A stretch of DNA of 64,000 nucleotides. It comes from Kiritimatiellia bacterium (GTDB lineage Bacteria > Verrucomicrobiota > Kiritimatiellia > RFP12 > UBA1067). Below the pieces are notes generated by a model. The model was given only the letters and a program-made list of their open reading frames with translations. It was not told the DNA's origin and searched no databases. The position numbers and the translations under genes were made by a program. How positions within the stretch are numbered: the stretch's first letter is position 1; each line of letters opens with the position of its first letter. This document shows, piece by piece, positions 10,712 to 63,513 of this stretch. The stretch is from positions 30,088-94,087 of the forward strand of contig JAZQGX010000291.1 in the NCBI GenBank assembly GCA_045540275.1. Reading direction: 5' to 3'.

Positions 10712-11476
10712 ATGAAAATCGAAAATCGTCTCTTCTCCAATTTAAACGCGGGTAAAATATCCATCGGCAGCGTCGTTACCATGAGTGACCTCATAGTCAG
10801 TGAATTGGCCGGCGATTGCGGCATGGACTTCGTCTGGATCGATGCTGAACACGCCCCTCATACCATCCAGGACGTCCAGCGTCATCTCATCGCACTGCGT
10901 GGCACCGGATGCGCGGGCTTAGTCCGCGTACGCGCGGACGACCCGATGCTGATCAAACCATATCTTGACATCGCTCCCGACGGCATCATCGTCCCGATGG
11001 TCAACACCCCCGAACAGGCCGAGATGGCCGTCGCCGCCTGCCGCTACCCCAAGACCGGCATTCGTGGATGTGGCGTGCGCCGCGCCGTGCGCTGGGGCGC
11101 GGAGGACTTTTTCGACTACGCCGCCTACTCCGAAAAATGGCCGTTGGTCATCTGTCAGATCGAGCACATCGAAGCGGTAAAAAATCTGGATGCGATTCTC
11201 AAGGTTCCCGGCGTGGATTCATTCTGCATAGGTCCTTGCGATCTGTCCGGCTCGATGGGGATACTCAACCGTTGCGACGATCCCGAACTCAACAAAGTCA
11301 TCGACGAGGTTGCCTTCAAAATCAAAAAAGCGGGTAAGTGGCTTGGAACGGCGGCCGGAGACTTCCCGCGCTGGAAGGAGCGCGGTGTCGATTGGTTCGC
11401 CGGTGTCAGCGACTGGGGCGCGATGGCCGCGGGCATTCGCTCATTCAAATCCGCCTGCGACGCAGTCCGCGGTTGA
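10712..11476 (+). CDS. HpcH/HpaI family 2-keto-3-deoxy-acid aldolase
   Basis: The N-terminus MKIENRLFSNLNAGKISIGS and the DFVWIDAEH motif are typical of HpcH/HpaI aldolases. The start is moved to ATG 10712, which has an AAGGAA purine tract upstream. Confidence 0.8.
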   Translation: MKIENRLFSNLNAGKISIGSVVTMSDLIVSELAGDCGMDFVWIDAEHAPHTIQDVQRHLIALRGTGCAGLVRVRADDPMLIKPYLDIAPDGIIVPMVNTPEQAEMAVAACRYPKTGIRGCGVRRAVRWGAEDFFDYAAYSEKWPLVICQIEHIEAVKNLDAILKVPGVDSFCIGPCDLSGSMGILNRCDDPELNKVIDEVAFKIKKAGKWLGTAAGDFPRWKERGVDWFAGVSDWGAMAAGIRSFKSACDAVRG

Positions 11477-11547: not shown

Positions 11548-12780
11548 TCAGGTGGTGTAATCGGCATTGATGTGGACATAGTCGAGCGACAGGTCGCAGG
11601 TGTAGACGGTCGCTTCGGCGTTCCCGAGACGGAGATTGACCGTGACTGTCAACTCGGGACCGGACAACTCCTTGGCAAGTTTCTCAAGCTGTTTCGCATC
11701 CGCCACCGCGCCGCGCCGGTATGCCCATGCCTTGCCGTAATAGACTTCCGCACGGCTGTCATCGACCATCGCCCCGGAATATCCTGCCGCCGCCAGCACC
11801 CGGCCCCAGTTTGGATCTTTGCCAAACCAGCTGGTTTTTGCAAGCGGGGATCTAGCTATTGCCTGAGCCGCTCGTTCTGCGTCGGACTGGGTCTTTGCGC
11901 CTTTGACGGTGACCATGACGAATTTCGTCGCCCCCTCGCCGTCGGCCGCCATCTGCTTGGTCAGCATGATGCATACCCTGGTCAACGCTTTTGCGAAATT
12001 TTCATATCGCTCATCCGCCTTGGTGATCTTGGCGTTTCCGGCCTTCCCGGATGCCATAACAAACACCGAGTCGTTGGTTGACATATCGCCGTCCACCACC
12101 AGCCGATTAAAGCTGACCGATACCGCCTTCGCCAATGCCCGGCGCAGCATTGACGGAGCAATGGCGGCATCGGTGGTAATGAAACCGAGCATCGTCGCCA
12201 TATTCGGGGCGATCATGCCCGATCCCTTGATCATGCCGCCTACGGTGACCGTTTTCCCGTCCAGCGAAAATCTGACCGCCGCCTGCTTCGGACGGGTATC
12301 CGTCGTCAACGTCGCCATGTTCGCCGCCAATCCAGCTTCAAGCGAATCGTCTAACTGCTGAGAAGCCAACTTGATTCCCGCCAGCAGACGATTCATCGGC
12401 AGACGGCGTCCGATTACGCCGGTGGACGCCACCATGACAAGAGCCTTGTCGATTCCCAGCGCCGCGGCCGTTGCGGCAGCGCTTTTTTCAGCGTCTTTCA
12501 GCCCTTCTTGCCCGGTGCAGGCATTGGCACAGCCGGAGTTTGCCACTATCGCCTGCACCTTGCCCGAAGCGGCAATGGGACGGTCGTAGATCACCGGGGC
12601 GGCCGCCACGGCATTGGTCGTGAACATTGCGGCGGTTGCACACGGCTCGTCGGCGACAAGCAGCATCACATCTTTGCGGTCCGCCTGTTTGATTTGTGCA
12701 GGCACACCGGCGGCACGAAATCCTTTCGCCGCCGTCACTCCGCCTGTTACAGCCCTAATGGGGCAGATACACGATTTCAT
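11548..12780 (-). CDS. argJ: Bifunctional ornithine acetyltransferase / N-acetylglutamate synthase
   Basis: 410-aa ORF with TLTTDT and the autoprocessing region PNMATMLGFITTDA. Confidence 0.9.
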   Translation of the reverse strand: MKSCICPIRAVTGGVTAAKGFRAAGVPAQIKQADRKDVMLLVADEPCATAAMFTTNAVAAAPVIYDRPIAASGKVQAIVANSGCANACTGQEGLKDAEKSAAATAAALGIDKALVMVASTGVIGRRLPMNRLLAGIKLASQQLDDSLEAGLAANMATLTTDTRPKQAAVRFSLDGKTVTVGGMIKGSGMIAPNMATMLGFITTDAAIAPSMLRRALAKAVSVSFNRLVVDGDMSTNDSVFVMASGKAGNAKITKADERYENFAKALTRVCIMLTKQMAADGEGATKFVMVTVKGAKTQSDAERAAQAIARSPLAKTSWFGKDPNWGRVLAAAGYSGAMVDDSRAEVYYGKAWAYRRGAVADAKQLEKLAKELSGPELTVTVNLRLGNAEATVYTCDLSLDYVHINADYTT

Positions 12781-37244: not shown

Positions 37245-37515
37245 AAACATCCTCCTTTTGTTTTCCCTGTTTAAATGCTCAAGGCACACCCTCAACCATT
37301 TTCAACCAATATACCACACCCCCTTTTTAAAAGCAAGGAACTGGCAACTATTATACGCTGGGCGATATCCTTCATCCCATTCTTGCCCTACCGAGAACCA
37401 GCGCCTTTCGCCTCGGCCACGAGGTCAAGAGTCGCCTGCCACCTGTCATTCACAAGACGGCGAAGATTGCCAAGGCGCGACGGCTCTAGCAGGAGCTCGC
37501 AGCTTGCCTGACTGA

Positions 37516-37857
37516 TTACACCCACCGTCCGTTGGTAGTCCCAGAGTTCACGGATATAGTATAAATCCGATAATCCTGCAAAGCCGTATGGATAATACCT
37601 TCCAATCCAACAACATCATCAGTCTTTATGCCTAAATGAAAGTCAAAGTTTTCGTAGACCGCCGTATTCAGCGAACCCAGGCGACTCGTAAAATCCTTCG
37701 CATTGCCGATCTTCACGGCCTTAACCATCTTACCCCTAAAAATACCCTTCGCCTTAACAAGCTTTAGGCACTCGTTCGTGACAACATATACATAGCCCGC
37801 TTTGGGCTTAAATTTAAGGTTCGTTTTCATAACCGACGTTTTCTTTGTTTTATCCAT
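37516..37857 (-). CDS. T5orf172 / MUG113 (GIY-YIG superfamily) domain protein, possibly C-terminally truncated
   Basis: AGYVYVVTNE...VKIGNAKDFTSRLGSLNT...GLEGIIHTAL core. The ATG overlaps the stop of the upstream gene (TAATG). Confidence 0.6.
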   Translation of the reverse strand: MDKTKKTSVMKTNLKFKPKAGYVYVVTNECLKLVKAKGIFRGKMVKAVKIGNAKDFTSRLGSLNTAVYENFDFHLGIKTDDVVGLEGIIHTALQDYRIYTISVNSGTTNGRWV

Positions 37858-38999
37858 TACGACTCTTCTTTCCTTACTAAATCTGCTACACCCGGCATCT
37901 TAAAGGAATGTTCACCTTTCAATAGCCCAGTATCCGATCGACTGAAAAGTGCTTGCATGACTATCTGTTTCACTTGGTCATCGCATTTCACATCCCCATC
38001 ACGTAAAAGTGCCAAAAACACATTCGTCAATTGAAAGCGTTCGCGATAGTCCCGTGAAAGGTGAAAACAACTTATTGCCAACTTGGTAAATAAATGCAGT
38101 AGATACCCAGCCATAGACGTAGCGGCTATCAAAATAAGACTCGCTCTAATTGTCGATAGACTGAGCTTATTTTCGTTTAAAATTACTATTGTATCAGTCT
38201 GAAATAATAGCCAAAGTAAGGCACCTATTGCACCCCCTCCCAACACTAATGACAAAGCTAACAATCCCCATCCCCAACCTAAATAAAACCTTGAAAGATT
38301 CTTCCAATGCTGTGCAGGTCCCTCAAGTTGCAACTTCTTTGAATAAGCTTCTTCCAAGGCCGCCATTTTATGTTCCGCTATACTTAGCTTTTTCTCAAAC
38401 TGCGATTTCCGTAGTTCATAATCTCTGTCAATCTTTTCTGCTGAATCAGTCAATTCTTCTATACGTCTCTTATAATCATTGATCTTCTCTGTAAGATCTT
38501 CCGGACACGCAAAATATTTAGCGACCCTTGCCGCCTGACACGCTAATGTTGTTGGATTTGACGTAAAAGTTACTGCCTTATATGGATAACCAAGAACCCG
38601 AATTGTTATTAAACAATATTCTAAAAAAAACTGTTGACTCAATTTTTGCTGTCTTAATTCACTTATATATCGACCAAGCCGTGACTGAGAATCGACACAT
38701 GAATTAATACCATTCGCATTAACTGCCCATTCTTGCAAAAGCTTCTTAACATCAGACAATGCGCCAGGTTCAATACGACCTTCTTTTGCTTCTTTGGTAA
38801 CATTCTCAAGTTTACTCAAAACCGTTTTATATCTATTAGCAATCGTATTTTCCACATTAGTCCATGCCGCAATCTCTTCTTGCACATGGTTTCGCAACCC
38901 GCCCAAATCCGGAAATGTCACTTCTCGCCCATCCGGCAACAGACTAAATATACTATCTTTATCTGGAATAATGTAATCTTCTGTCGGCTGTATCGCCAT
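37857..38999 (-). CDS. Hypothetical coiled-coil protein with two C-terminal transmembrane segments
   Basis: 380-aa ORF with GGGAG upstream. It has a charged heptad-like stretch (KINDYKRRIEELTDSAEKIDRDYELRKSQFEKKL) and two hydrophobic spans. I recognise no family with confidence. Confidence 0.6.
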   Translation of the reverse strand: MAIQPTEDYIIPDKDSIFSLLPDGREVTFPDLGGLRNHVQEEIAAWTNVENTIANRYKTVLSKLENVTKEAKEGRIEPGALSDVKKLLQEWAVNANGINSCVDSQSRLGRYISELRQQKLSQQFFLEYCLITIRVLGYPYKAVTFTSNPTTLACQAARVAKYFACPEDLTEKINDYKRRIEELTDSAEKIDRDYELRKSQFEKKLSIAEHKMAALEEAYSKKLQLEGPAQHWKNLSRFYLGWGWGLLALSLVLGGGAIGALLWLLFQTDTIVILNENKLSLSTIRASLILIAATSMAGYLLHLFTKLAISCFHLSRDYRERFQLTNVFLALLRDGDVKCDDQVKQIVMQALFSRSDTGLLKGEHSFKMPGVADLVRKEES

Positions 39000-39091
39000 A
39001 TTCTATACTCCCTTTTCTCTTTAAGAAAATTCTAAAACAATTGTATTACATCCATCTTTGCGTGATTTAAAATTATCAATTTAGTTGGCCT

Positions 39092-39487
39092 CTATCCTAC
39101 GAGAACAGAACGATGCCCCTGTTTCAACACCTGACTACCTTGACCATTGACAATGCACTTTCTAATAGCAGCATTACGCAATTCAAGACGACATGCCCCT
39201 TCATGATACCATGAATCTTTATACCAAACCACGTCAATTCCGCATGAATCCAACACCATGCGCATTTGTGATACCAAATCTAGATCCTCCACATGCGGAT
39301 GTGAAACAAAAATTCTTTCCCTTGTCGTTCTATCTATAAATGTCTCACAATGATCTAACAAAGGAAATTTAAATGGAAACTTTTTCCATTGAGGAAAAGA
39401 ATTGCCGTCTTTACCTGTCAAATAACGAATAGGATCCGTCAATTTGCCACGTGTGCACTTGTAATTTTTAGGAACATCAATCAGCAT
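39092..39487 (-). CDS. Hypothetical 131-aa protein
   Basis: AT-rich ORF with GAGG 7 nt upstream, on the same strand as its neighbours with 92-nt spacers on both sides. I recognise no motif. Confidence 0.45.
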   Translation of the reverse strand: MLIDVPKNYKCTRGKLTDPIRYLTGKDGNSFPQWKKFPFKFPLLDHCETFIDRTTRERIFVSHPHVEDLDLVSQMRMVLDSCGIDVVWYKDSWYHEGACRLELRNAAIRKCIVNGQGSQVLKQGHRSVLVG

Positions 39488-39579: not shown

Positions 39580-40617
39580 TTAACCTCCAACCATGTAATC
39601 AGCGATTTCACTTTCATTGACAAAATACAAGTTACCCCTTGTCCTTGTGCATGCAACATAAAACTTATTAAGTGTTGATGCCGCGAGCATATTGAGGCGT
39701 CCTTTTTGAAACAAGCCAAATGTTTTCTTATTTAGAACAACACACACATTATCAAACGAGAGCCCCTTACATTGCCCCCAATTGGCACTTCGGCACGAAT
39801 ATTGCCTATGTTCCTTAAAAAAGAGTTTCATTATAGAGTCACTATTCATTATCCTTTGAATGTCTTCCGTGGCTGTCAGCAATGCAGGATCGTCAACATC
39901 AGTTCTGCATGAGAATGATCCTATGTCAATTCCAATCTTCTCATGTACAAAATCACAAACTACGGCAGGACATCTATAGCTTTTTGACAATGTTGACCTA
40001 TCTATCTGATAATGCTTTGCCAACGCTGTCTGATATGACATAAAATCCTTGTGCAGATTCTTATTCTTTGTACCATCTCTACTTGTATCATAAGTATGTT
40101 GAAAGAAATCCCCTGTTAGTACCACATCTACATCAGTCGATCCTAACATCTCAATAAAGTCAAAATCATATCCAGCAAAATCTTGGACTTCATCTATTAA
40201 GATTTCATCAAAAAACTTCGTCAACCGATTCTTAATCTTATCTCTGCCAACATAATTGAGAACAAAGTCAAATGCCCGTGCATGGAATACTTCGCCGCTT
40301 TGAGAGACATATCTTGAGACTCCTTTGTCAAATCTTGACAAGGGGCCTTGCGGAAATATCAATCTCGTAATAATTGGAGCTGTCGATATTTCAAATGGTT
40401 TTAATAAGAATCTAAACACAAATGAAAACCACGTAGAAATCATAATGTTGTCAGGTATGCGGCCAAACTTTCTGACTACTGCGGTGGTCAGATTCTCCGC
40501 ATTATTGTCTGTATAAGTCAATAACAGCGTACGCTTAGCCAAAGACAAGGAATCAACGAGCATTGTCGTTTTCCCTGCACCGGCAACAGCAAATATGGCT
40601 TTTTTTACATAAGCCAC
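39580..40617 (-). CDS. Compact UvrD/PcrA-like SF1 helicase (GajB-like)
   Basis: Walker A AVAGAGKTT, motif II LIDEVQDF, then SYRCP and VACTRTRGNLYF. The GTG start overlaps the OLD gene stop by 13 nt. Confidence 0.7.
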   Translation of the reverse strand: MAYVKKAIFAVAGAGKTTMLVDSLSLAKRTLLLTYTDNNAENLTTAVVRKFGRIPDNIMISTWFSFVFRFLLKPFEISTAPIITRLIFPQGPLSRFDKGVSRYVSQSGEVFHARAFDFVLNYVGRDKIKNRLTKFFDEILIDEVQDFAGYDFDFIEMLGSTDVDVVLTGDFFQHTYDTSRDGTKNKNLHKDFMSYQTALAKHYQIDRSTLSKSYRCPAVVCDFVHEKIGIDIGSFSCRTDVDDPALLTATEDIQRIMNSDSIMKLFFKEHRQYSCRSANWGQCKGLSFDNVCVVLNKKTFGLFQKGRLNMLAASTLNKFYVACTRTRGNLYFVNESEIADYMVGG

Positions 40618-42119
40618 TCTATAGCCTCCCTAATATACTGTGGAACGTTAAGTTTTACACCTGACGATAGAATCTGATACGCAGCTTCCGCTTTATGCTC
40701 TAACATGTAATCCAATGCTGATTCATGTTCATGGAAAAGCCTATCAAGAGCATCTTTATTATCATTGTACAGACACACCTCAAAAGTATATCTTTCTGCT
40801 GAAGAATCTGAGAATACCTTTCTATCATTATCCTGTAAATCAGGATACCAACACTGTGGCTTACGGTCATTATCTCGAACAGCCGCAACTTTGATATTTA
40901 ATATTTTTCCTACTTCTAAATATCGGCGGAATGACAAGTTGTTCAAAGCCATTATCCAAACGCCACCTGTATCGGAGTCTAATCCTTTTACTGTGTTAAC
41001 AAATCGATCCATTAAAATATATTCTGCCGCCCCTTCAACCAACAAAACTTTCTTTGAAAGAACAAATTGCAAAAGATTGTCATTTGGAGCTTTCATAAAG
41101 AACTCACCCGTTGCTTTGGAAAGTCCTGTTAAAGATTGAATCTTCCCATTGACAAAGAAAGTATTCTGAAGCCCCAGCCTCGAAGTAATATAACTACTAT
41201 GAGTCACAATAAATATCTGTCGATCAGCAGCTCTCTCTTTAATCTTTGAGATAAGCCGCCTTAAATTGTAATGGCTCAAATGATTTTCTGGTTCCTCAAT
41301 GGATAGAATACTAATATCATCAACGTTTTTATCCAGCGCACTATCCGTCTTGCATATACTTATTCTTCCCTCGCCCTGATTAAGCAATCTGATTCCATTC
41401 TCTTTAATATCTAAATAAGATTCCAGATCTCCCGTAACGATTACATTTTTATCGACTGCAGGTTGTGGCAAGGGAAAACTCGCGATATGTTGCCTAAAAT
41501 CATACTGCGTAGACACTCGATTATTGTCCTCAACTGCATTCTTATACGTGCGCTCAACAACATATCGCAGTGTCTTTGCCGTATTAATTGCAGTATTGTC
41601 AATATACAACGATTTACAAGGTTTTATATATCCAGAATAGCTCTCATCCGAAAAAGTTGTAAAACTTGTCTTGTAAAATTCAAATGGAAACTCAATCGCC
41701 TTTTTCTCGCGAATACACGCTAATATATCTGCTTCAAAATCTTGATTTGGAGCACATATCATCTTAATACCAAATAATGGCCGATTACGCCCGTCTAAAT
41801 ACTTTTCCCCGTTGTATCGACTTGTTTTGGGAGTGTCGGGCATCTCGAAAAACAATTCAACTCGCATAATTGGGAGGTTCTCTAATGTTGGATGCCCCAT
41901 CCACTTTAAAACCGCATTCGCATTTAGCAAATTCTCTAATCCTATGGCCGCTACTCTTGTCACACTGCCACAAAGCACCATATCAAGGGCTTGAAGTATT
42001 GAACTCTTTCCTGCTCCATTATTGCCAACAAATATATTCATCTCTTTGTTGCAACAAATAGTTTCGTCTTCAAATATCTTGAAATTAACAAGACGGATTT
42101 TTTGCAAATAAATGTCCAT
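40605..42119 (-). CDS. OLD-family ATPase/TOPRIM nuclease (GajA-like)
   Basis: LVNFKIF...GNNGAGKSSILQAL Walker A; SIEEPENHLS; TOPRIM LLVEGAAEYIL and AAVRDNDRK. The start is set at ATG 42119. Confidence 0.75.
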   Translation of the reverse strand: MDIYLQKIRLVNFKIFEDETICCNKEMNIFVGNNGAGKSSILQALDMVLCGSVTRVAAIGLENLLNANAVLKWMGHPTLENLPIMRVELFFEMPDTPKTSRYNGEKYLDGRNRPLFGIKMICAPNQDFEADILACIREKKAIEFPFEFYKTSFTTFSDESYSGYIKPCKSLYIDNTAINTAKTLRYVVERTYKNAVEDNNRVSTQYDFRQHIASFPLPQPAVDKNVIVTGDLESYLDIKENGIRLLNQGEGRISICKTDSALDKNVDDISILSIEEPENHLSHYNLRRLISKIKERAADRQIFIVTHSSYITSRLGLQNTFFVNGKIQSLTGLSKATGEFFMKAPNDNLLQFVLSKKVLLVEGAAEYILMDRFVNTVKGLDSDTGGVWIMALNNLSFRRYLEVGKILNIKVAAVRDNDRKPQCWYPDLQDNDRKVFSDSSAERYTFEVCLYNDNKDALDRLFHEHESALDYMLEHKAEAAYQILSSGVKLNVPQYIREAIEWLM

Positions 42120-42161
42120 AAACACTACCTTTACTACTCATACGACAGACGACTTCACCTA

Positions 42162-42599
42162 TTAACACACCGCACTCTTTCGTCTGTGGGAGGCGTCGAG
42201 GGTGTGGATGGTTTTGGTGACGTAGGCGGTTTCTGGTTTGGTGAGTTTGAAGAGCGTGCAAAGCTGTGTGTTGATGTCGCGGGTAAAATCAAGCAGACCA
42301 TCAGCCGTCTTCCATTCGTGAAACCAAGGCACTTCCTTTGCAAGCGTGGTTAACGCTTCATCGGTCATCAAGAACAAGAAGCGGACAATATTCGACTGGC
42401 AAAATTTCATAAAGTTTTCCGCCTCTGTCTTCGTCTTGAGCATTCCCAATGCCACACGTGAACGCCCAAAGGCGGAATGGTTATCTAACAGTTCAAGCTG
42501 CCAATCTCGCTTCTGTCCTCCCGCGTTTGCACAGGGCGAAGCAACATCCGCGAATGGCTCTTTGGTTTCGGGTTGTTTTAGCATCACCATACTCCTCAA
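42162..42599 (-). pseudogene. C-terminal fragment of a type II/IIG restriction-modification (Eco57I-like methyltransferase) protein
   Basis: KTKTEAENFMKFCQSNIVRFLFLMT...VPWFHEW...LCTLFKLTKPETAYVTKTI resembles the conserved tail of adenine-methylase/R-M fusion proteins. No catalytic N-terminal part is present. Confidence 0.45.
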
Positions 42600-45197: not shown

Positions 45198-45299
45198 TTA
45201 TACCACAACATCATAGTCCTCAACAAGCCTGTTTATTTCCTTGTCTACAAAGATTTTAAGACTGTGTGTCTGCGACTTCCCAATAATCTGCTCAATCAT
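45198..45299 (-). CDS. 33-aa ORF translationally coupled to the upstream gene
   Basis: ATGATTGA overlap with the stop of the 144-aa ORF. The peptide is MIEQIIGKSQTHSLKIFVDKEINRLVEDYDVVV. It is below the ORF-track length cut-off and no family is recognised. Confidence 0.3.
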   Translation of the reverse strand: MIEQIIGKSQTHSLKIFVDKEINRLVEDYDVVV

Positions 45300-45726
45300 T
45301 TTTAGATTCTCCTTCGATCTTCTCGGTTAAAGTGTTATCCTGCAAAGCATGCTCAATAGTTGCAAAGACTTCGGCTATGTCTCTCTTACGCTTAACTTTG
45401 GATGGATTGGCAAATGCGGCAAGAGCCTCGCGCCGGTACTTGTTCATGCGCCGCACGAGCGCCACAAACCCCTTGTAGCTTTCGCTGTCTTTTGCCGCCT
45501 CCAGTGAAGTGTATACTTCACCAACCTCACGCGGAAAGTCGCTCGTGAATGACATCTTCCCATCCATCGTTCGCGTAACCATGAGGCGATAGCCGTGAAT
45601 ATTCTCGTAGTAGGCACTTATGCTTTCATCAATGCTAAAACCGCTTGGAAAAATACGCATCGCCCCAGTATTCACTTCATACCGGTGCGCTATCTCGTAA
45701 TGCACCTCGTCAAGCCGTATCCTCAT
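45292..45726 (-). CDS. Hypothetical 144-aa protein
   Basis: ORF whose ATG 45726 overlaps (ATGA) the stop of a 44-aa leader ORF. I recognise no motif. Confidence 0.45.
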   Translation of the reverse strand: MRIRLDEVHYEIAHRYEVNTGAMRIFPSGFSIDESISAYYENIHGYRLMVTRTMDGKMSFTSDFPREVGEVYTSLEAAKDSESYKGFVALVRRMNKYRREALAAFANPSKVKRKRDIAEVFATIEHALQDNTLTEKIEGESKND

Positions 45727-45857
45727 GACGCCACCTTTCCACATTCGCGATCAGGCCCCGTCAAGCGGTCCTTCAGCAAAACCGCAAGAACCTCTTCCGG
45801 AACGTGCCATTCCAGAATGTCTGATTGAATGCGGTTTTTTGTCATTGCGCTTGTCAT
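45723..45857 (-). CDS. 44-aa leader ORF (MTSAMTKNRIQSDILEWHVPEEVLAVLLKDRLTG...)
   Basis: It starts 25 nt downstream of an extended -10 (TGGTATAAT). Its first 16 codons are duplicated at 47288. It may be an N-terminal gene remnant. Confidence 0.3.
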   Translation of the reverse strand: MTSAMTKNRIQSDILEWHVPEEVLAVLLKDRLTGPDRECGKVAS

Positions 45858-45891
45858 GATTTTATTATTTGATATGAGAATATTATACCAA
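45806..45891. repeat. 86-bp direct repeat, copy A (promoter plus leader start)
   Basis: About 92% identical (7 mismatches by eye) to 47237-47322. Confidence 0.85.
45882..45890 (-). promoter_or_regulatory. Extended -10 promoter element TGGTATAAT
   Basis: Perfect TGnTATAAT on the minus strand, overlapping the Fic stop codon and lying upstream of the leader/R-M gene chain. Confidence 0.45.
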
Positions 45892-47204: not shown

Positions 47205-47236
47205 GAATCAAACCGACAGCCTCTCTTTCGGGAAAG

Positions 47237-47322
47237 GCCGTTCCAGAATGTCTGATTGGATGCGGTTTCTTGTCATTACGCTTGTCATGATTTTAGCATT
47301 TGATATGCGAATATTATACCAA
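47237..47322. repeat. 86-bp direct repeat, copy B (promoter plus leader start)
   Basis: About 92% identical to 45806-45891. It contains TGGTATAAT (47313-47321) and a 26-aa ORF, MTSVMTRNRIQSDILERPFPKERLSV. Confidence 0.85.
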
Positions 47323-47401: not shown

Positions 47402-47547
47402 CTTTTAGGAGAAATAGAACTATATCCGGCAACTTCTGCTGGGGCTAAAAACGCCCCGAAAGGTCTGCCGGCATATTACCCCAAAAATTTCAATATATCC
47501 TTCTCTTTTCATAGGACTGATATAAACCACCCGGCATCAACCTGTCG

Positions 47548-47665
47548 TCATTCCCACTCAATCGTGGCCGGAGGCTTGGAGGAAATGTCGTAGACGACGC
47601 GGTTTATGCCGTGCGATCAGCTGCGTGTACTGAGAACCATAGTCGAGAATAATGATCTTATCCAT
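47548..47665 (-). pseudogene. guaA: GMP synthase remnant: first ~19 codons joined out of frame to last ~19 codons
   Basis: The minus strand reads MDKIIILDYGSQYTQLIAR, the glutamine amidotransferase N-terminus. In another frame it then reads INRVVYDISSKPPATIEWE-stop, the canonical GuaA C-terminus. About 1.4 kb is missing. Confidence 0.8.
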
Positions 47666-55460: not shown

Positions 55461-58094
55461 GACATTCTTATGCTTACCATAGTAGGCGTTAAGATACATC
55501 TGCTTGATTTCCTTCATCATCGGATAACGCGGATTGGCGCCCGTGCACTGATCGTCGAAAGCCTGCTCGGTCATTTCGTCGAGACGTGCGAGGAAGTCCT
55601 CCTCATTCGGGACGTAATCGCGGATCGTGGGCTTGATGCCGACGCGCGCCTTGAGATCCCTGATGGCGGTGATGAAGTTCTCAAACTGCTCGGCCTTGTT
55701 GCGGCCGCGAATGCCGAGAGCCGTGGCGATTTCGAGGTACCGCTCAAGACCGTGAGGATGGCCGTACTGAGAGAACGTGCCCATCTTGCGCGGCACGGGA
55801 TCGGCGTTGAAGCGAAGCACTTCTTCCATCATAAGCGCGTTGGCGATACCGTGAGGAATGTGGTGGAACGCACCGAGCTTGTGAGCCATCGAGTGCATTA
55901 CGCCGAGGAACGCATTGGCGAAAGCCATACCGGCGATCGTGGCGGCGTTGGCCATCTTCTCACGGGCGACGGGATCGGCGCGCTTTTCAACGGCCGCGTC
56001 ATAGCAGGCGGGGAGATACGTGAAGATCGTCTGGAGCGCACGAATGGCAAGACCGTCGGTATAGTCCGTCGCGAGCATCGAAGCGTAAGCCTCGAGAGCG
56101 TGGGAGACAGCGTCGATACCCGAGGCGCTCGTAAGGCCGGGAGGCGCGGACATCTGCATATCGGCGTCGACAATCGCCATCGTAGGCATAAGCTCGTAGT
56201 CGGCGAGAGGATACTTGGTCCCCGTCGTTTCGTCGGTGATGACGGCGAACGGAGTTACTTCGGAGCCTGTGCCGGCCGAAGTCGGGATGCAGACGAACGA
56301 CGCCTTAACACCCATCTTCGGGAAGCGATAGACGCGCTTGCGGATATCCATGAAGCGCATCGCCATATCGTTGAAGTCGGCCTCGGGGTGTTCATAGAGA
56401 ACCCACATGATCTTCGCCGCGTCCATCGCGCTTCCGCCGCCAACGGCGATGATGACGTCGGGATTGAAGCCGGCCATCAGCTTGGCGCCCTCCTTAGCGC
56501 AAGCGAGCGTCGGATCAGGCGCAACGTTCGAGAAAGTCGTGAACATGATGCCCTGGGCCGCGAGAGACTTCTCAATCGGCTTGGTGTAGCCGTTGGCGTA
56601 GAGGAAGGTGTCGGTTACGATGAACGCTCGCTTCTTCTGCATTTCTTCACCGAGTTCACGCAGCGCGAGCGAGAGGCAGCCTTTCTTCTGGTAGATTTTC
56701 TCCGGCGCGCGGAACCACAACATGTTTTCTCTTCTCATAGCAACCGTCTTGATATTGATAAGATGTTTAACGCCTACGTTCTCCGAAACGGAATTCCCGC
56801 CCCAGCTGCCGCAACCGAGAGTGAGCGACGGGGCGAGCTGGAAGTTGTAGATATCGCCGATGCCGCCCTGCGAGCTCGGGGTATTGACGAGAATGCGGCA
56901 GGTTTTCATGCGGGAAGCGAACTCGGCGACCTTTTCCTTTTCGTTGATCTCGTCGAGATAGATGGAGCTCGTGTGGCCGTAGCCGCCATCGGCGACGAGT
57001 TTCTCCGCCTTCTGGAAGGCGTCCTCGATATCCTTGGCGCGATACATCGCAAGCACGGAAGAGAGCTTTTCGTGGGCGAACTCTTCGGAGAGTTCAACGC
57101 TCTCGACTTCACCAATAAGAATCTTCGCGTCGTCGTCGACCTTAAATCCGGCGAGCGCGGCAATCGTGACCGGCTTCTGGCCGACGATCTTGGCGTTAAG
57201 AGCGCCGTTGATGAGAATCGTCTTGCGGGTCTTCTCGAGCTCGGCGTTGCTGAGGAGGTGGCAGCCCATCTTGCGGAAAAGAGCCTTGACCTCGTCGTAG
57301 ACGCTGTCGAGAACGATCACGCTCTGCTCCGAGGCGCAGATCATACCGTTGTCGAAAGTCTTGGAGTGGATGATCGAGCTGACGGCGAGAGTCAAGTCGG
57401 CCGTCTCGTCGATGATGGCGGGGGTATTGCCGGCACCGACGCCGAGAGCGGGAGTACCCGAGCTGTAGGCGGCCTTGACCATGCCGGGTCCGCCAGTTGC
57501 GAGAATAAGATCGCTCTCCTTCATGAGGAGGTTCGTCTTGGGGAGCGACGGAGCGTCGATCCAGCCGATGATCTCCTTGGGTGCACCAGCTTCGACGGCT
57601 GCGTCGAGAACGATCTTCGCCGCGGCAATCGTCGCGTTCTTCGCACGCGGGTGGGGGCTGATGACGACGCCGTTGCGGGTCTTAAGAGCGATAAGGGTCT
57701 TGAAGATGGCGGTCGAAGTCGGGTTTGTCGTAGGAATGACAGCTCCGATAACGCCGACAGGCTCGGCGATCTTCTCAATACCGGCGGCCTCGTCGCGGTC
57801 GATCACTCCGCAGGTTTTGACATCCTTGAAAGCGTTGTAGATAAATTCGCTGGCGTAGTGGTTCTTGATGATCTTATCTTCTACAACGCCCATACCGGTT
57901 TCTTCGACAGCCTGCTTCGCGAGCGGGATTCGGGCGCGGTTGGCGGCGAGTGAAGCCGCCTTGAAGATCTCATCTACCTTTTCCTGAGAATATGTCGCGT
58001 AGATTTTCTGCGCCGCTCTAACGCGCGCAATGGTTTCCTGAAGTTCCGCGAGTCCGTCGTCCTGAACGGGAGCGGGAATGTTTGCGCTTTGCAT
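55458..58094 (-). CDS. adhE: Bifunctional acetaldehyde-CoA / alcohol dehydrogenase
   Basis: 878 aa. The N-terminal ALDH half has an active-site region, and the C-terminal iron-ADH half has GGGSAMDAAK and His-rich metal motifs. Confidence 0.95.
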   Translation of the reverse strand: MQSANIPAPVQDDGLAELQETIARVRAAQKIYATYSQEKVDEIFKAASLAANRARIPLAKQAVEETGMGVVEDKIIKNHYASEFIYNAFKDVKTCGVIDRDEAAGIEKIAEPVGVIGAVIPTTNPTSTAIFKTLIALKTRNGVVISPHPRAKNATIAAAKIVLDAAVEAGAPKEIIGWIDAPSLPKTNLLMKESDLILATGGPGMVKAAYSSGTPALGVGAGNTPAIIDETADLTLAVSSIIHSKTFDNGMICASEQSVIVLDSVYDEVKALFRKMGCHLLSNAELEKTRKTILINGALNAKIVGQKPVTIAALAGFKVDDDAKILIGEVESVELSEEFAHEKLSSVLAMYRAKDIEDAFQKAEKLVADGGYGHTSSIYLDEINEKEKVAEFASRMKTCRILVNTPSSQGGIGDIYNFQLAPSLTLGCGSWGGNSVSENVGVKHLINIKTVAMRRENMLWFRAPEKIYQKKGCLSLALRELGEEMQKKRAFIVTDTFLYANGYTKPIEKSLAAQGIMFTTFSNVAPDPTLACAKEGAKLMAGFNPDVIIAVGGGSAMDAAKIMWVLYEHPEADFNDMAMRFMDIRKRVYRFPKMGVKASFVCIPTSAGTGSEVTPFAVITDETTGTKYPLADYELMPTMAIVDADMQMSAPPGLTSASGIDAVSHALEAYASMLATDYTDGLAIRALQTIFTYLPACYDAAVEKRADPVAREKMANAATIAGMAFANAFLGVMHSMAHKLGAFHHIPHGIANALMMEEVLRFNADPVPRKMGTFSQYGHPHGLERYLEIATALGIRGRNKAEQFENFITAIRDLKARVGIKPTIRDYVPNEEDFLARLDEMTEQAFDDQCTGANPRYPMMKEIKQMYLNAYYGKHKNV

Positions 58095-58155
58095 TTTCTT
58101 TATCTTTCCTCTTTTTTACTGTCCGAAGAACCCTTCTTCAGACGAATTGGCGCGT

Positions 58156-58184
58156 AGTATAGCACTTTTTATATCGGTAATCAA
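58156..58184 (-). promoter_or_regulatory. Sigma-70-like promoter for adhE
   Basis: On the minus strand, TTGATT, then 17 nt, then TATACT, about 60 nt upstream of the adhE ATG. An adjacent 19-bp palindrome lies at 58191-58209. Confidence 0.45.
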
Positions 58185-59008
58185 GTAGCGATATTAAAAT
58201 ATTTAATATTTTTTTATCATTGACAAACACACGCTTAATTCACGCATCTAATTCACGTATCATCTCTGCAAGACTATTGAATAGTGCAGTTGTTTTAATG
58301 TTGCCAGTGCATCAAAACACATCGCAAGTCATTTCTTCTAAACCTTCTAACCTCCAACCAACTCCCAACACTTCCCCATTCCTCATTGGTATTGAAAACT
58401 GGTACTGGCAACACTTTCACATCCTGTCCACCGTAGCCTTGGCGAAGGTGGATGGCAACATTCCCTAGCGTCCACAAATCAACACTCATCTCCACAAATC
58501 TGATTTATGAGAATTGGTGTCACTTTGTGGATAAGATTTTCGTGCCCCTCTACATCACTTCATCTGCACACGGAATGTAAACATAAAAAATAGGTCGTTT
58601 GATGGCTCGCGCTAAGTTCGCCAAGTCCGCGAAGTTTTTGCGGCGGAGCTGCAACAAAAGCTGTTGTGGCGGCGACACTAAAACGCCGCACAAGTGGTGC
58701 TACACGAAAAAGGTTGGAAAGTTTAGTAGATTTTGAAGGTTTAGGGGTAGTTCGTATTCGAGAACCATTCCCAGTTCCCTATTCCCCGTTCCCCTCATTT
58801 TCGTGTTATTTCGTGACGGCGAAGCCGTTTCGTGTTTGCGGCAGGTGACGCCCCCCCGATAGGGTGAATCGGAGATGGACGCACAGCCGAGGCGAAGCCT
58901 CAAGGTGTGTGCGGACAACTACGATTCAATCGCGCATTGCCACGATTCGTCACCGCCGCAGATTTTGTGGTCGCGCAGAGCGCACAAACGGCGCGAGGTG
59001 CGCGAAAC

Positions 59009-59036
59009 AAAAAAGCCCACCGTTGGTGAGCTTTTT
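59009..59036 (-). terminator. Rho-independent terminator after the 59-64 kb operon
   Basis: Hairpin AGCCCACC-gtt-GGTGAGCT with one mismatch, flanked by an A-run and T5. On the minus strand it is followed by TTTTTTGT. It lies about 55 nt after the stop at 59089. Confidence 0.5.
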
Positions 59037-59088
59037 AATTAATGTTGCAAATAAAACGCAATCCCGCTTTCAGATGTTTTATACTGAA

Positions 59089-59700
59089 CTAAAAGACTTC
59101 TAATTCCATAGGGGGTTCGACACCAAGAATATCAAATAACATTTCACAATCTGTCGGCGACAAATTATTAGCTTTAGCCAACATCAATTCCTCTTGCCAA
59201 TCAGGTGAAATACGTAGATACTTGCGAGCATAAAAATCGAACTTGATATATGCAAGAAAGTAATGAAATACCCCACGATCTTCTACCATCAATGCTGCAT
59301 TGACATATTCAATGGCTTTTTTAATATTCGCCATAGGAGTAAGAAATGCTTTCTTGCCCTTCAGCAACGAAACTGCAGCATAGAAGGATGCTTCAGGATT
59401 GTCTAAATTCTCTTCTATTGCTTCCTCAAACCGTTGCAATGCCTTGTCGTAGAGTTTCAGCTTGAGATAGCATCCGCCGATGGTGAATTTCATGTCGGCG
59501 GCAAGTTCTGGCGACACGCCGTCCCTCAAGTCTTTATCCAGCGCACGTGACAACTTGTTGAGCGAAGGCAAGTCCTGTGCATATACGCTGTTGAAACTTG
59601 TAATAACAATTGCCTTGCCACAACAAGGACACTCTGACATGGCTGGCGCAAGTGCCTCACAACATCCGCTACACTTCATGTCAACGACTTTTACTGCCAT
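59089..59700 (-). CDS. Zinc-ribbon protein with TPR-like helical repeats
   Basis: N-terminal CSGCC...CPCCG zinc ribbon, followed by helical repeats (GGCYLKLKLYDKALQRFEEAIEENLDNPEASFYAAVSLL). Confidence 0.55.
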   Translation of the reverse strand: MAVKVVDMKCSGCCEALAPAMSECPCCGKAIVITSFNSVYAQDLPSLNKLSRALDKDLRDGVSPELAADMKFTIGGCYLKLKLYDKALQRFEEAIEENLDNPEASFYAAVSLLKGKKAFLTPMANIKKAIEYVNAALMVEDRGVFHYFLAYIKFDFYARKYLRISPDWQEELMLAKANNLSPTDCEMLFDILGVEPPMELEVF

Positions 59701-59736
59701 TTTATACTGCCTTTCTTTGTTTGTTGTTTACGTCAA

Positions 59737-60426
59737 TTACTTGTAAAGCGCTATTTGTCGTTCACGTTCGCGAACGAGATCAATACCTTCCCCGGCAATG
59801 GTTTCCAGACTCTTAGGATCTCCGTTCCCAATAGCAGATTCTATGTTCGCGACATGCGAACGTATCTGGTCTTCAAGCATGGAGACCTGGGGGATTGTCC
59901 GTATGGACGCGCCAAAGACCGCATCGCGAAAACGCTCTATGCTTCGTCGCATATCCCTCGACGGCACACGTTGCATGGCAAGTTCAAGCCTACCAACGCA
60001 ATCCTTTATGAAGAATGCGTCACGTCGATTACGCTGTTCGTTTGCCTCCGTATGAGACTCCGCATTCATCAGCAACAAATAATGGAAAATATAAAATCCG
60101 ATAATGATGGCATGAACAATAACAGGGAAAGTGATGGTGGAATTGTTTATAAGAATCAATATCACACCCCAAATCAAAGACGCCGTGAAATAACCGTACG
60201 CGACCATCATCTTCGGATAGACATGCACAACGCTCCCGCTTGAATCAAATCGGTTGAAGGAAAGCGAAGACACGCAGAACAACAGATATGACAGGTGGAT
60301 TCCTACATACGACACCCATCTCGCAGGCGTATGGTTCTCGATCATGTTGAAATACAAAACGTTGAACACCAATATTACAACGAGATAGAGCGCAATTTTC
60401 GCGATTGAATTCTTTTGCATTTTCAA
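59737..60426 (-). CDS. Hypothetical membrane protein (about 4 TM) with helical cytoplasmic C-terminal domain
   Basis: Four hydrophobic spans in the first 125 aa are followed by a charged helical tail. I recognise no family. Confidence 0.55.
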   Translation of the reverse strand: MKMQKNSIAKIALYLVVILVFNVLYFNMIENHTPARWVSYVGIHLSYLLFCVSSLSFNRFDSSGSVVHVYPKMMVAYGYFTASLIWGVILILINNSTITFPVIVHAIIIGFYIFHYLLLMNAESHTEANEQRNRRDAFFIKDCVGRLELAMQRVPSRDMRRSIERFRDAVFGASIRTIPQVSMLEDQIRSHVANIESAIGNGDPKSLETIAGEGIDLVRERERQIALYK

Positions 60427-60437
60427 CTCCTTTCCTG

Positions 60438-61694
60438 TCAGCAGACCTTAGTTCCGCAGTTCGGGCAGAACTTGAATCCGGCCGGGACATTCGCTCCACA
60501 GCCTGAACACGTAGCACTCTGCGGCAGAGGCTGTCCGCAATTCCCACAGAATTTCCCACTTCCGGCAATCTCGCCGCAATGCGGACACACGGTTTGTGGA
60601 GCAGATGCAGACGCGGGAGTTGCCGTCTGCTGCGGCGATGCCTTGGGGGCGAAACGCGATGGTCCAGAAGGAAAAGATGGCGGTTGTTGCTGCGAGGGAG
60701 CTTGCATAGGCGAGAACATGGCGGCAGCCATGTTGCCCATCACGCCACCAGCAACCATCCCCATGCCCAATCCCGCACCAGTTGCCGCAATGCCACCTGC
60801 ACCGGGGTTATTCACCATGTCTCTCATTATGTCCCGTGCTTGTATTCTCTGCCAATGTTCCCCTTGTATATTTATCTGCTGCATCTCACCAAGTGCCTTT
60901 TCTGCCATCTCCATCTGGTGAAGGCCAAAAGAAGCACGCCTCTTTTTGTAATCCTTGAACTCATCGGTTTCAAGAACATTCAATGTCGTCAGGTAAAAGT
61001 TCTCAAGGAGCATCCCGAATTTTCTAAATCCGTCGTCAAGAATGGTTTCTAATTTTTTGGCAATGTCAGGAAGGAACTTCTGCACGCCAAAAATGCCATT
61101 TTCCACACTTTCTATTACGGCTGCTATGTTGCTCTTTACGAAAGCATCCAGTTGAGGACGGATGACCTCCTTATTTACTTCTTCCTTAGTCCGAGGCTGA
61201 TCCCATCTTATTGCCGTTCCTTGAGAGTCCTTTGACAAGAAAAGCTTGGGGTCTTGAATGCTTACTGTATAATTTGCCTGTGCCTGAAGTTCTACGGGAA
61301 CATTTATAAAATCTCCACCCGGAAGAAATGGCGGCATGTGCATTTCCACTGGAATGGGAGTCTGTGTTCCCCACCGAAGATTTGTCATTGGCTTTTTGTT
61401 GATAAAGAAAACCGTATACTTGTATGAGTTCTCTCCTCCGGAGAAAGACGCACGCAATCTGTCAAGAAAAGGATAGTTGCTGGTCGTAAGCGTGTAACGC
61501 CCCCCCGAAAACGATTCAACCAGTTTCCCATTATCGAGAAGCAAGGCGACATCATCCTCGTTTACCTGCAAGATACTGCCGTTGCGGAAATCCTCAGTTG
61601 GATGCCGCCATATCGGATATGCTCCAGTTCCCTGCTCACGTGCAATGACTTGATATGCGTTGTGAAGGTTTTTTATGCTTGAGAAGAGTCCCAT
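60438..61694 (-). CDS. SPFH-domain protein (COG4260 / YdjI-like) with C-terminal double zinc ribbon
   Basis: The N-terminus MGLFSSIK...IWRHP...NGSILQVNEDDVALLLDNGK is typical of the 'virion core protein-like' SPFH family. A Gly/Met/Pro-rich linker precedes CPHCG...CGNCG and CSGCG...CPNCG. Confidence 0.8.
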   Translation of the reverse strand: MGLFSSIKNLHNAYQVIAREQGTGAYPIWRHPTEDFRNGSILQVNEDDVALLLDNGKLVESFSGGRYTLTTSNYPFLDRLRASFSGGENSYKYTVFFINKKPMTNLRWGTQTPIPVEMHMPPFLPGGDFINVPVELQAQANYTVSIQDPKLFLSKDSQGTAIRWDQPRTKEEVNKEVIRPQLDAFVKSNIAAVIESVENGIFGVQKFLPDIAKKLETILDDGFRKFGMLLENFYLTTLNVLETDEFKDYKKRRASFGLHQMEMAEKALGEMQQINIQGEHWQRIQARDIMRDMVNNPGAGGIAATGAGLGMGMVAGGVMGNMAAAMFSPMQAPSQQQPPSFPSGPSRFAPKASPQQTATPASASAPQTVCPHCGEIAGSGKFCGNCGQPLPQSATCSGCGANVPAGFKFCPNCGTKVC

Positions 61695-61728
61695 CTCGTT
61701 TCCCTTTCTGTCTGTTGACCGTTAAAAG

Positions 61729-63513
61729 TCATCTTTCGTTTACCCGTTGCCTAAACCATGCATCAGCCACAGCGTCGCGTTGACCTGGACGATCGTTTGC
61801 CTCCATGCTCGGATCGGTCGGCGGCGGAACATCACCGGAACCCATGCCCGCTCCATTATCAGACGCTTCCGCGAGTCTGTCTTTCAACCCGCCGCCTGAG
61901 GTGCCATCGTCTGACGCCTCCTTGTAATCACCTAGCTTGTCGGTGTCTGGCACGACAATCTGGCGCGCGCCGCCTTCACATTCCACGACATCCGTTCCAT
62001 CGGAATCTCTAGCAGGGGCCACATCACTGACATACGCCGTTGTCGGCTCTTCGACTTCGCGATGCGAAACCGTGTCGGCAGAGCGTTCTCCAATCACGGA
62101 ACCATCCTCTGGGTTCCTTTCATATTCAGGCAGCGCGTATTTATCTTTGACAGCATCCTCATCTATGTTTCCAGACTCATCCATTACACCCTGTTTTTTC
62201 AATTCGTCATCAGTCGTGTAATAATTGCTTCCCTCGTTGAAACGGTGGTCGCTATCCTCAACCCTTGCCAATTCTGTCCCCTCGTCCAATGTAACCTTCT
62301 CCCATCCCTCGCCGGAGGATATAGTATCCATTGCTTTGTCATATAATTCACGGTGTCGGTCATCGTCTTGCCCAGCTTCGGCCACATCATTTTTCATCAA
62401 GTCGTCATACATCTCATTGGCGACCTGAGCTTCACGATAAACCTCGTCAGTGACTTCTTCCGATGGTTCTACAAGCGATTCGAACTTCCCCGAATCATTC
62501 TCCTCCCTCTCGTCATTTGATTCTGGCGGCATTTCCGTCTCCTCCAAGGCCGCCGCATCTTCTGTCGCCAATTCTTCTTGGGGGGAGGCATCAACGGACT
62601 CGTCCAACGGTTCTGCAGTTTCGTCATCAGCAGATTCTTGCGTTTCTTGTGACTCCGACTCCTGCTCTGCCTGCTCTTGCGCCTCCCGTGCTTCACGGTC
62701 GGCTTGTTCCTGCGCCTCGCGCTCCGCCGCCTCCGCCTTGGCCTGTTCTTCTTCTGCCTCTCGCAGGGCTTCTTCGCCCGCCTTCTCCGCCTCGAGCGCG
62801 GCGCGTTCCGCATCTTCGCTGGCCGATTCCGCTTCCTTCGCCTGCTCTGCCGCCGCCTCTGCCGCCTGTTCTGAGACTTCCTGCGCTTGTTCGGATGCCG
62901 CGTCTGCCGCACCCGCAGCATCGCCTGCAGCATCAGCAAGCGCTTGTGCGTCACTTGCAGCATCCTTGGCCTCGTTCACCGCGGCATCCACGGCGGCGGC
63001 ATCCGTCATATCAACATCTTTAAGCCGTTCCACCGCCTGCTCTGCATCTCGCGCCGCCGCCGCATCGTCCGCCGTGTCGGAAGCCGCATCGGCCTTCTCG
63101 TCAGTCGCATCCTCGACTTTCTCGGCCTCTTCAACCGCCTCTTCGGCAGCAGCTACATCCTCTTCAATCGCCGCCTCTTCCTCCTGAACCTCTTTCTGAA
63201 AATCTTCCGCTATCGCATCTTCCGATGCCCCGTCTTCAATCGGTGCGTCATCGTCTGCCGACACATCCTCCGCAAGCGGCTCAGACTCTGCGGCGCCATC
63301 ATCAGACCAGGAGTCAGACATGTCGGAGCTCTCTTCGCTCAACTCGGAAAATGAATCTTGTGAATCGTCATACGAAGCGTCAGATGAAGAATCCGAGAAA
63401 AAGTCGCCTGAAGAGTCGGACGAGGTGGCAGATGAAAAATCAGAAGAGCTATCCGACGACACATCGGATGAGGTGTCAACACTTGAAGAGCTGTCGTCCG
63501 TATCGTCGCACAT
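61729..63513 (-). CDS. Hyper-acidic low-complexity protein with globular C-terminal domain
   Basis: 594-aa ORF with AGGAGG 9 nt upstream and a 3-nt gap to the upstream ORF. It has a Ser/Asp-rich region, then an Ala/Glu-rich region, then about 200 aa of ordinary-complexity sequence. Confidence 0.65.
   Translation of the reverse strand: MCDDTDDSSSSVDTSSDVSSDSSSDFSSATSSDSSGDFFSDSSSDASYDDSQDSFSELSEESSDMSDSWSDDGAAESEPLAEDVSADDDAPIEDGASEDAIAEDFQKEVQEEEAAIEEDVAAAEEAVEEAEKVEDATDEKADAASDTADDAAAARDAEQAVERLKDVDMTDAAAVDAAVNEAKDAASDAQALADAAGDAAGAADAASEQAQEVSEQAAEAAAEQAKEAESASEDAERAALEAEKAGEEALREAEEEQAKAEAAEREAQEQADREAREAQEQAEQESESQETQESADDETAEPLDESVDASPQEELATEDAAALEETEMPPESNDEREENDSGKFESLVEPSEEVTDEVYREAQVANEMYDDLMKNDVAEAGQDDDRHRELYDKAMDTISSGEGWEKVTLDEGTELARVEDSDHRFNEGSNYYTTDDELKKQGVMDESGNIDEDAVKDKYALPEYERNPEDGSVIGERSADTVSHREVEEPTTAYVSDVAPARDSDGTDVVECEGGARQIVVPDTDKLGDYKEASDDGTSGGGLKDRLAEASDNGAGMGSGDVPPPTDPSMEANDRPGQRDAVADAWFRQRVNER

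Follow-up and report, generated by a model that had tools for sequence, protein, structure and literature searches.

AbiZ is carried on pTR2030-type plasmids of Lactococcus lactis. It is a single-gene abortive-infection system, thought to permeabilise the membrane together with the phage holin and so to bring about premature lysis, and no fold relatives of it have been reported (PMC13064643). Other described systems hold GIY-YIG-type nuclease domains: SNIPE/PD-lambda-1 joins a transmembrane (TM) part, a DUF4041 domain and a GIY-YIG domain in one protein, and the predicted catalytic glutamate of SNIPE is essential, as the change E414A abolishes defence (bioRxiv 10.1101/2025.11.03.685801). PDC-S57 is a single-gene PADLOC candidate with a T5orf172/MUG113 domain; it is itself a computational defence candidate only, and no mention of it turned up in the literature searched. 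In phages, T5orf172 homing-endonuclease genes lie at genetic-exchange boundaries (Barth, Dunham and Seed 2023, PMC10448857). Here we compare with these systems three open reading frames (ORFs), encoding products of 131, 380 and 113 amino acids (aa), which occupy positions 37516-39487 of a 64,000-nucleotide (nt) stretch from a Kiritimatiellia bacterium (contig JAZQGX010000291.1, positions 30,088 to 94,087), hereafter called the window. We consider it likely that they are three separate modules (an AbiZ-like gene that acts autonomously, a small orphan gene and the dead fragment of a T5orf172 gene), and that they do not form a new sensor-plus-nuclease system.

An initial annotation, made from the letters of the window, had placed three low-GC minus-strand ORFs directly after an OLD/UvrD gene pair, and their coordinates were confirmed. 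They are not chance ORFs: the 380-aa protein has ~180 homologues, the 131-aa protein has 31, and the 113-aa product is 90% identical to the first 100 residues of full-length proteins. The 380-aa protein had been taken as uncharacterised; by its homology it is instead a member of the AbiZ (DUF6161) family. Pfam DUF6161 covers its residues 168-364 at 2.5e-32 (112.6 bits, cut-off 27), the match running from position 19 to 214 of the 216-position profile. The PADLOC model of AbiZ, PDLC02354, matches at 1.7e-22 between its positions 197 and 384 (of 398), and nothing was found in NCBIfam or PHROGs. Moreover, a tblastn search of plasmids led to a DUF6161 protein (L063; fetched loci are designated by L numbers) on the lactococcal dairy plasmid pUCCL629C, ~2.4 kb from abiA, and the match of this protein to the PADLOC AbiZ model takes in the entire model (2.6e-166). 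BLASTP aligned the 380-aa protein to the pUCCL629C AbiZ with 27% identity through 227 aa (E 3e-18), an alignment that takes in the coiled coil, both TM helices and the C-terminal motif. The link of DUF6161 to AbiZ is not widely noted. The homologues have 36-93% identity and are mostly 368-402 aa long; relatives occur in gut and rumen metagenome-assembled genomes of Lentisphaerota (Ca. Spyradenecus), Kiritimatiellia and Bacteroidales. DUF6161 relatives on plasmids were distant only, and neither AbiZ-like nor T5orf172 relatives were found in the viral contigs searched, thus leaving a phage-borne origin without support.

The two hydrophobic spans that had been pointed out in the 380-aa product were recovered (maxima of 2.17 and 1.72 in a 19-residue Kyte-Doolittle window), and they align with the hydrophobic region of lactococcal AbiZ. 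The AlphaFold2 model is all-helical, with long helices at residues 169-266 and 281-333, a predicted local distance difference test score (pLDDT) of 72 and a predicted template modelling score of 0.32; Foldseek gave no match to this model at E <= 0.001 in PDB or BFVD, and the PDB profile searches returned nothing below E 0.07. The nearly invariant C-terminal motif holds columns that do not vary among homologues of 40-85% identity, and the motif aligns with lactococcal AbiZ too. The window copy is 22 coiled-coil residues shorter than the 402-aa forms and otherwise complete; moreover, all nine full-length AbiZ-like homologues compared are intact, whatever the state of T5orf172 beside them. Nei-Gojobori ratios of nonsynonymous to synonymous substitution against six relatives were 0.16-0.25 overall, being 0.03-0.14 for residues 236-380 (the TM and C-terminal part) and 0.20-0.41 for the N-terminal 165 residues. 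These ratios show purifying selection on an intact AbiZ-like gene, and the N-terminal 165 residues are a candidate sensing region, that is, a faster-evolving head on a conserved membrane effector.

The resemblance to AbiZ comprises the significant similarity of coiled coil, two TM helices and C-terminal motif, a comparable size (380 aa against 432 aa), a place among other defence genes and the lack of detectable fold relatives. The differences are that the N-terminal ~165 residues are unrelated to those of the lactococcal protein, that the host bacterium is high in GC, of Gram-negative type and from gut or rumen, with relatives of the gene in Lentisphaerota, Kiritimatiellia and Bacteroidales and not in Firmicutes, and that the ancestral form of the window clade had a translationally coupled T5orf172 gene. 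In addition, lactococcal AbiZ causes premature lysis of infected cells, whereas the window protein is known from sequence alone. By homology with lactococcal AbiZ, the 380-aa protein would by itself bring about abortive infection: at a late stage, and probably with the phage holin, it would compromise membrane integrity, and the infected cell would lyse early and release few finished virions. The AbiZ-like gene is most likely the sole active and autonomous abortive-infection module among the three ORFs.

The 113-aa ORF had been described as encoding a T5orf172/GIY-YIG-type protein without its C-terminal end, which agrees with our results. Its product scored 25.4 bits against Pfam T5orf172 (cut-off 20), covering profile positions 1-74 of 101, and 28.7 bits against MUG113 (cut-off 22.3); it matches PADLOC PDC-S57 at 1.9e-8 through positions 4-72 of 212. 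It thus corresponds to the N-terminal third of PDC-S57, while its full-length relatives span nearly the whole model (positions 4-207 of 212, 1.6e-33) and positions 1-98 of 101 of T5orf172. These relatives measure 319-337 aa (~250 aa in short forms), with a full gene of ~960-1010 nt. Over the first 100 residues the 113-aa product has 90% identity to the 328-aa protein of L006, after which the two diverge: at the breakpoint the window reads ...LQDYRIYT|ISVNSGTTNGRWV* and the full-length protein ...LQDYRITT|RDGDLTEFFACQLDEV..., and full-length homologues go on with ...RDGDxTEFFAC... where the homology of the window ends. In blastn, every match from >40 related loci ended at 37557-37559; GC content rises to 53.6% in 37296-37558, and this post-breakpoint DNA had no match in any fetched locus. 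The window copy, unlike PDC-S57, ends at residue 100, having lost the conserved TEFF motif, in which the presumed catalytic glutamate lies, the rest of the nuclease domain and ~220 C-terminal residues. In GIY-YIG enzymes a conserved glutamate in this region binds a metal ion. Judged from these alignments, the 113-aa ORF is what remains of a pseudogenised nuclease gene, namely its front third, and its product is predicted to be catalytically dead.

Lesions of T5orf172 were also found elsewhere, at >=10 positions (residues 50, 52, 74, 78, 85, 88, 123, 147 and 150, and an internal deletion joining 39 to 160), and the breakpoints of the different truncated copies had no sequence in common. The window remnant and the copy in L025 have 97.7% nucleotide identity (37557-37822 against L025 6437-6702), while the 131-aa genes of the same two loci are only 72% identical, a pattern indicative of recent recombination, its breakpoint lying close to codon 10-12 of T5orf172. 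On plasmids, only distant GIY-YIG relatives were detected. As a separate observation, a 16-nt inverted repeat, ACTATATCCGTGAACT / ACTATATCCGGCAACT, lies at 37545-37560, exactly at the T5orf172 breakpoint, and at 47419-47434, near the left edge of the island described below; the regional count of such repeats is about that expected by chance, so that the repeat is suggestive by its placement alone, a post hoc observation.

The overlap of the stop of the 380-aa gene with the start of the 113-aa ORF, reported before as TAATG, was found at 37855-37859 and amounts to 1 nt; the same junction is common to L001, L005, L030-32, L038, L048 and L071. Full-length T5orf172 follows an AbiZ-like gene only in L005-L010/L013 and in L030-32/L038 (328 aa, same 1-nt overlap), the intact pair of L006 spanning 4933-7127, and AbiZ-like genes without T5orf172 occur in L002-4 and L014-16. 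We compared eight distinct arrangements, that is, the window and seven found with DUF6161 as seed, none of which came from a T5orf172 search. All eight have an intact AbiZ-like gene; T5orf172 is intact in one (Qat context), truncated in three (at residue 100 in the window, 150 in L001 and 50 in L071) and absent from four (L002, L014, L015 and L016). The distant homologues in L015, L016 and the plasmids L063 and L064 have no T5orf172 neighbour either. In a neighbour-joining tree, the AbiZ-like copies lacking T5orf172 (L002, L014) nest among those bearing it, implying secondary loss of T5orf172. As regards L071, its island (~11 kb) holds Type I restriction-modification (R-M), Fic and AbiZ-like genes and a 72-aa T5orf172 remnant, and is bracketed by a 23-bp tandem repeat, AATCATATGATAATCGATTTGAA, with eight copies on the left (954-1135) and ~1.6 on the right (12101-12135).

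A scan of metagenomes of the Joint Genome Institute seeded with T5orf172 showed the same gene (66-92% protein and 84-98% nucleotide identity) behind >=8 unrelated gene types, namely DUF6161, the 131-aa gene, a 290-aa ORF, an AAA ATPase, RhuM, HsdR, a 491-aa ORF and a resolvase. The block conserved between these contexts consists only of the T5orf172 ORF (from ~codon 6-14) and ~60-200 bp downstream. The many upstream partners and the recurrent lesions make T5orf172 a promiscuous, often eroded module with no dedicated AbiZ-like partner. Thus the co-occurrence of the two genes, raised by the initial annotation, is real in that the pair recurs with the same junction, but it is not specific in either direction. 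The arrangement resembles that of the T5orf172 homing genes of phages (PMC10448857), since the gene lies at the border between conserved and variable DNA, its sequence becomes conserved somewhere in the first ~14 codons and the upstream neighbours vary; it differs in that these copies lie in bacterial chromosomal defence islands and not in phage genomes, with no copy in the viral contigs. The likeness is one of gene placement.

The third product, of 131 aa, belongs to a small and uniform family. Identity to its homologues is 59-89% for the 29 of 31 that are exactly 131 aa long, the most distant one being 123 aa, and 17 representatives were found among 1.84 billion proteins, all of them small stand-alone proteins. 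The residues D45/H46/E48, E57 and D91/S92/W93 are invariant. Searches of Pfam, PADLOC, NCBIfam and PHROG gave no match, the plasmid search gave no relatives, and the AlphaFold2 model (mean pLDDT 84) had no Foldseek match in PDB or BFVD at E <= 0.001; neither a family nor a fold was thus assigned to this product. The PDB profile searches gave nothing below E 0.07 here too, and a profile match to the nicking endonuclease N.BspD6I (E 0.66) was not significant and was rejected. Elsewhere the 131-aa gene directly follows a prokaryotic Argonaute (Piwi)-SIR2 system (pAgo-SIR2), a pair of DUF4062 and HATPase_c_3 (MORC-like) genes or an AAA ATPase, and the gene of the 123-aa relative (43% identical to the 131-aa protein) overlaps the end of a Type ISP R-M gene; downstream of the 131-aa gene lie a full-length T5orf172, an AbiO/Nhi-like gene, or a Y1 transposase or HIRAN protein. 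The closest relative (89% identity, L072 586-2085) is followed by an AbiO/Nhi-like helicase-nuclease (PADLOC 7e-145) and not by AbiZ-like and T5orf172 genes. From its family and neighbourhoods, the 131-aa gene is an intact member of a rare orphan family and behaves as an independent module trailing diverse defence operons; its role is possibly accessory, regulatory or that of an independent defence.

The initial annotation had proposed a split membrane sensor and nuclease effector, and the corresponding explanation is that AbiZ-like and T5orf172 genes form a genuine two-gene system, in which a GIY-YIG-type nuclease is recruited or licensed by a membrane anchor or sensor, a split counterpart of SNIPE/PD-lambda-1; in that case the window would carry a decayed copy with partial function or none. 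All loci with both genes keep the 1-nt stop/start overlap, and intact pairs occur in >=2 upstream contexts, Qat and HNH (L005-L010, L013) and HsdR of Type I R-M (L032, L038). As in SNIPE, a membrane element stands beside a T5orf172-type nuclease, and the nuclease domain of the full-length partner weakly matches the nuclease part of the PADLOC PD-Lambda-1 models (1.1e-5). Moreover, SNIPE shows that a membrane-tethered nuclease works as a defence (bioRxiv 10.1101/2025.11.03.685801). We nevertheless regard a two-gene system as unlikely, as an intact T5orf172 was present in only one of the eight arrangements although the AbiZ-like gene was always intact and under purifying selection, the same T5orf172 gene stands behind at least eight unrelated gene types, lactococcal AbiZ works alone, and in the window the T5orf172 ORF is a decayed 5' fragment whose homology ends at residue 100, a finding that the initial annotation had itself named as refuting its proposal. 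The locus also departs from SNIPE in several features: DUF4041 is matched by none of the three proteins, the 380-aa and 113-aa proteins match no PD-Lambda-1 model, the membrane protein is a separate polypeptide with its TM hairpin at the C-terminal and not the N-terminal side, and the truncated nuclease lacks the region expected to correspond to that of the catalytic glutamate. That the 113-aa product is functional as it stands, perhaps as a regulator that binds DNA or is dominant-negative, and that its translational coupling to the AbiZ-like gene keeps it in use, would fit its 113 open codons, its start coupled to the AbiZ-like stop and its preserved GYVYVV and KIGNAKD motifs; we consider this very improbable, given that the tail beyond residue 100 is unrelated sequence made by the breakpoint, that truncations elsewhere fall at many positions with differing tails, as in random decay and not as in a selected short form, and that no identical protein appeared in the homologue search.

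A role of the three genes as accessories that extend or regulate GajA/GajB of the adjacent Gabija-like system, also raised in the initial annotation, finds hardly any room in our results. In favour of such a role, all three directly follow GajB on its own strand, the gaps measure 92 nt and no terminator was predicted between the genes; at all other loci examined, however, the 131-aa, AbiZ-like and T5orf172 genes occur without Gabija, beside Qat, pAgo-SIR2, Type I or Type ISP R-M, a MORC-like ATPase or an AbiO/Nhi-like gene. Gabija adjoins the 131-aa gene only in the island of the window, GajB standing beside it otherwise in the same-island contigs L065 and L066. Some observations do weigh against three separate modules with an autonomous AbiZ-like gene. 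The junction GAGTCGTAATGGATGAAAC is kept in every locus with both genes, with AbiZ-like divergence down to 62% identity, so that the pair is inherited as a block and may have worked as a unit before it decayed. The truncation junction was seen in one assembly only, and misassembly at a gene with as many contexts as T5orf172 might conceivably be the source of the truncation. Only the C-terminal ~55% of the 380-aa protein aligns with AbiZ or DUF6161, and residues 1-165 had no match in any library; together with the lack of a structure match, this means that the trigger may differ from that of lactococcal AbiZ, whose own mechanism is only partly established in the literature. With these points included, we still favour separate modules as the likely explanation.

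The region 37516-39487 is the end of a horizontally acquired phage-defence island, and the earlier placement of these genes in a defence island was right. The GC content is 39.4% in the 131-aa gene, 39.6% in the 380-aa gene and 41.8% in 37559-37857 (the T5orf172-homologous part of the 113-aa ORF); host DNA flanking the three ORFs has 53-60%. The low-GC island measures ~10 kb (~37.56-47.5 kb), with the three ORFs as its distal end, and reads in order Fic (PDC-S72, 3e-128), a 150-aa ORF, an Eco57I-type methylase and a BsuBI/PstI-type endonuclease (a Type II R-M pair), a 145-aa ORF, GajA, GajB, the 131-aa gene, the AbiZ-like gene and the T5orf172 remnant. The OLD/UvrD pair had been called Gabija-like, and the near full-length PADLOC matches of GajA and GajB bear this out (Table 1). 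Of the Shine-Dalgarno sites that had been judged good for all three ORFs, those of the 131-aa gene (GAGG) and the 380-aa gene (AAGGGAG) hold, whereas the 113-aa start is preceded merely by a purine-rich stretch. Promoter and terminator counts in the region were no better than those of shuffled sequence.

Table 1. Positions of the three ORFs, their parts, other island genes and copies of the 46-aa ORF (window coordinates unless a fetched locus is named).
Feature	Position	Strand	Basis or remark
131-aa gene	39092-39487	minus	ORF list
380-aa gene, AbiZ-like (DUF6161)	37857-38999	minus	ORF list and profile matches
N-terminal soluble domain of 380-aa protein, residues 1-165	38505-38999	minus	variable; outside DUF6161/AbiZ profile matches
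TM hairpin of 380-aa protein, residues 243-267 and 286-304	38088-38273	minus	Kyte-Doolittle
Nearly invariant C-terminal motif HLSRDYRERFQLTNVFLALL...FSRSDTGLLKG	37905-38087	minus	alignment
113-aa ORF	37516-37857	minus	ORF list
T5orf172/PDC-S57-type 5' remnant, codons 1-100	37558-37857	minus	homology to full-length relatives
Unrelated tail, 13 codons and stop	37516-37557	minus	arises from truncation; breakpoint 37557-37559
Short-type Gabija pair, directly upstream of the three ORFs	39580-42125	minus	PADLOC
GajA	40605-42125	minus	PADLOC GajA 2.2e-85, model positions 2-531/532
GajB	39580-40617	minus	PADLOC GajB 5.1e-55, model positions 4-356/369
145-aa island ORF	42162-42599	minus	no significant match in Pfam, PADLOC, PHROGs
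150-aa island ORF	45292-45744	minus	no significant match in PADLOC, PHROGs
46-aa ORF copies, L005	9861-10080 (partial: 8226-8259, 10872-10933)		
46-aa ORF copy, L025	7418-7607		
46-aa ORF copy, L017	7419-7624		
46-aa ORF copy, L029	5997-6140		
46-aa ORF copy, L031	1920-2109		
46-aa ORF copies, L056 and L070	several in each		

One flank of the island is the hisF/hisH cluster, and the other holds a 431-aa gene that, read by eye, we take to be a Gfo/Idh/MocA-type oxidoreductase. In a search for the empty site, the 431-aa gene as called in the ORF list was not on record, and the RibBA look-up gave one contig, which ends before the island; because this search gave no usable contig, the insertion site and the truncation junction are without independent confirmation. 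The 145-aa and 150-aa ORFs are perhaps orphan genes of the defence island, or else remnants. Immediately to the left of the island, at 47548-47665 on the minus strand, lies what we take to be a remnant of guaA (GMP synthase), with its N-terminus MDKIIILDYGSQYTQLIAR in one frame and a canonical C-terminus RVVYDISSKPPATIEWE* in the next, nearly the entire gene between both ends being deleted. A 113-nt direct repeat (85% identity, 45779-45891 and 47210-47322) stands on either side of the Fic/PDC-S72 gene; TATAAT-like motifs occur within it, and it may represent a leader or promoter that was duplicated. At 58000-62000 of the window the GC content is lowered once more (44-49%), which suggests another acquired segment.

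In related loci, a conserved 46-aa acidic ORF, MAMPQRDDTIEAIKRLDALLEYAVMHGDEEEAERIREELRRLTDEV, stands nearly always right after T5orf172 and recurs after later cassettes, sometimes as a 5' fragment; it is absent from the window. Third-codon-position variation was found in 40 of 47 columns (versus 24 and 19), indicating that the ORF is protein-coding, and the element holding it in L005 matched no Rfam family. For the 46-aa ORF, either a partnership with T5orf172 or a role as a repeated substrate for recombination is conceivable. A speculative proposal, which we hold to be rather improbable, is that T5orf172 and the 46-aa ORF constitute a module that ends the hypervariable defence arrays of gut and rumen bacteria in the Planctomycetes-Verrucomicrobia-Chlamydiae group and Bacteroidales, either toxin-antidote-like or homing-endonuclease-like. 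If homing-like, T5orf172 would mark and promote the boundary where AbiZ-like, 131-aa, pAgo-SIR2, Qat, R-M and Gabija cassettes swap. Under the same proposal, the >=10 independently truncated T5orf172 copies, that of the window included, would be scars, deletion of the downstream partner would be tolerated only when the nuclease was also killed, and the AbiZ-like/T5orf172 junction would reflect a once-functional membrane-plus-nuclease pair.

As for the three ORFs themselves, an apparent three-gene system comes down to one gene of a known Abi family, one pseudogene and one orphan gene, and a false call of a new system is avoided. The range of AbiZ relatives now takes in Lentisphaerota, Kiritimatiellia and Bacteroidales of gut and rumen, groups remote from Lactococcus. 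For the biology of defence islands two leads arise, a very rare 131-aa family trailing many unrelated systems and a T5orf172 gene that is present in many arrays and has been eroded again and again. Should AbiZ-like genes prove to work alone here, the idea of a split membrane-nuclease system would be better pursued on the intact AbiZ-like/T5orf172 pairs of relatives.

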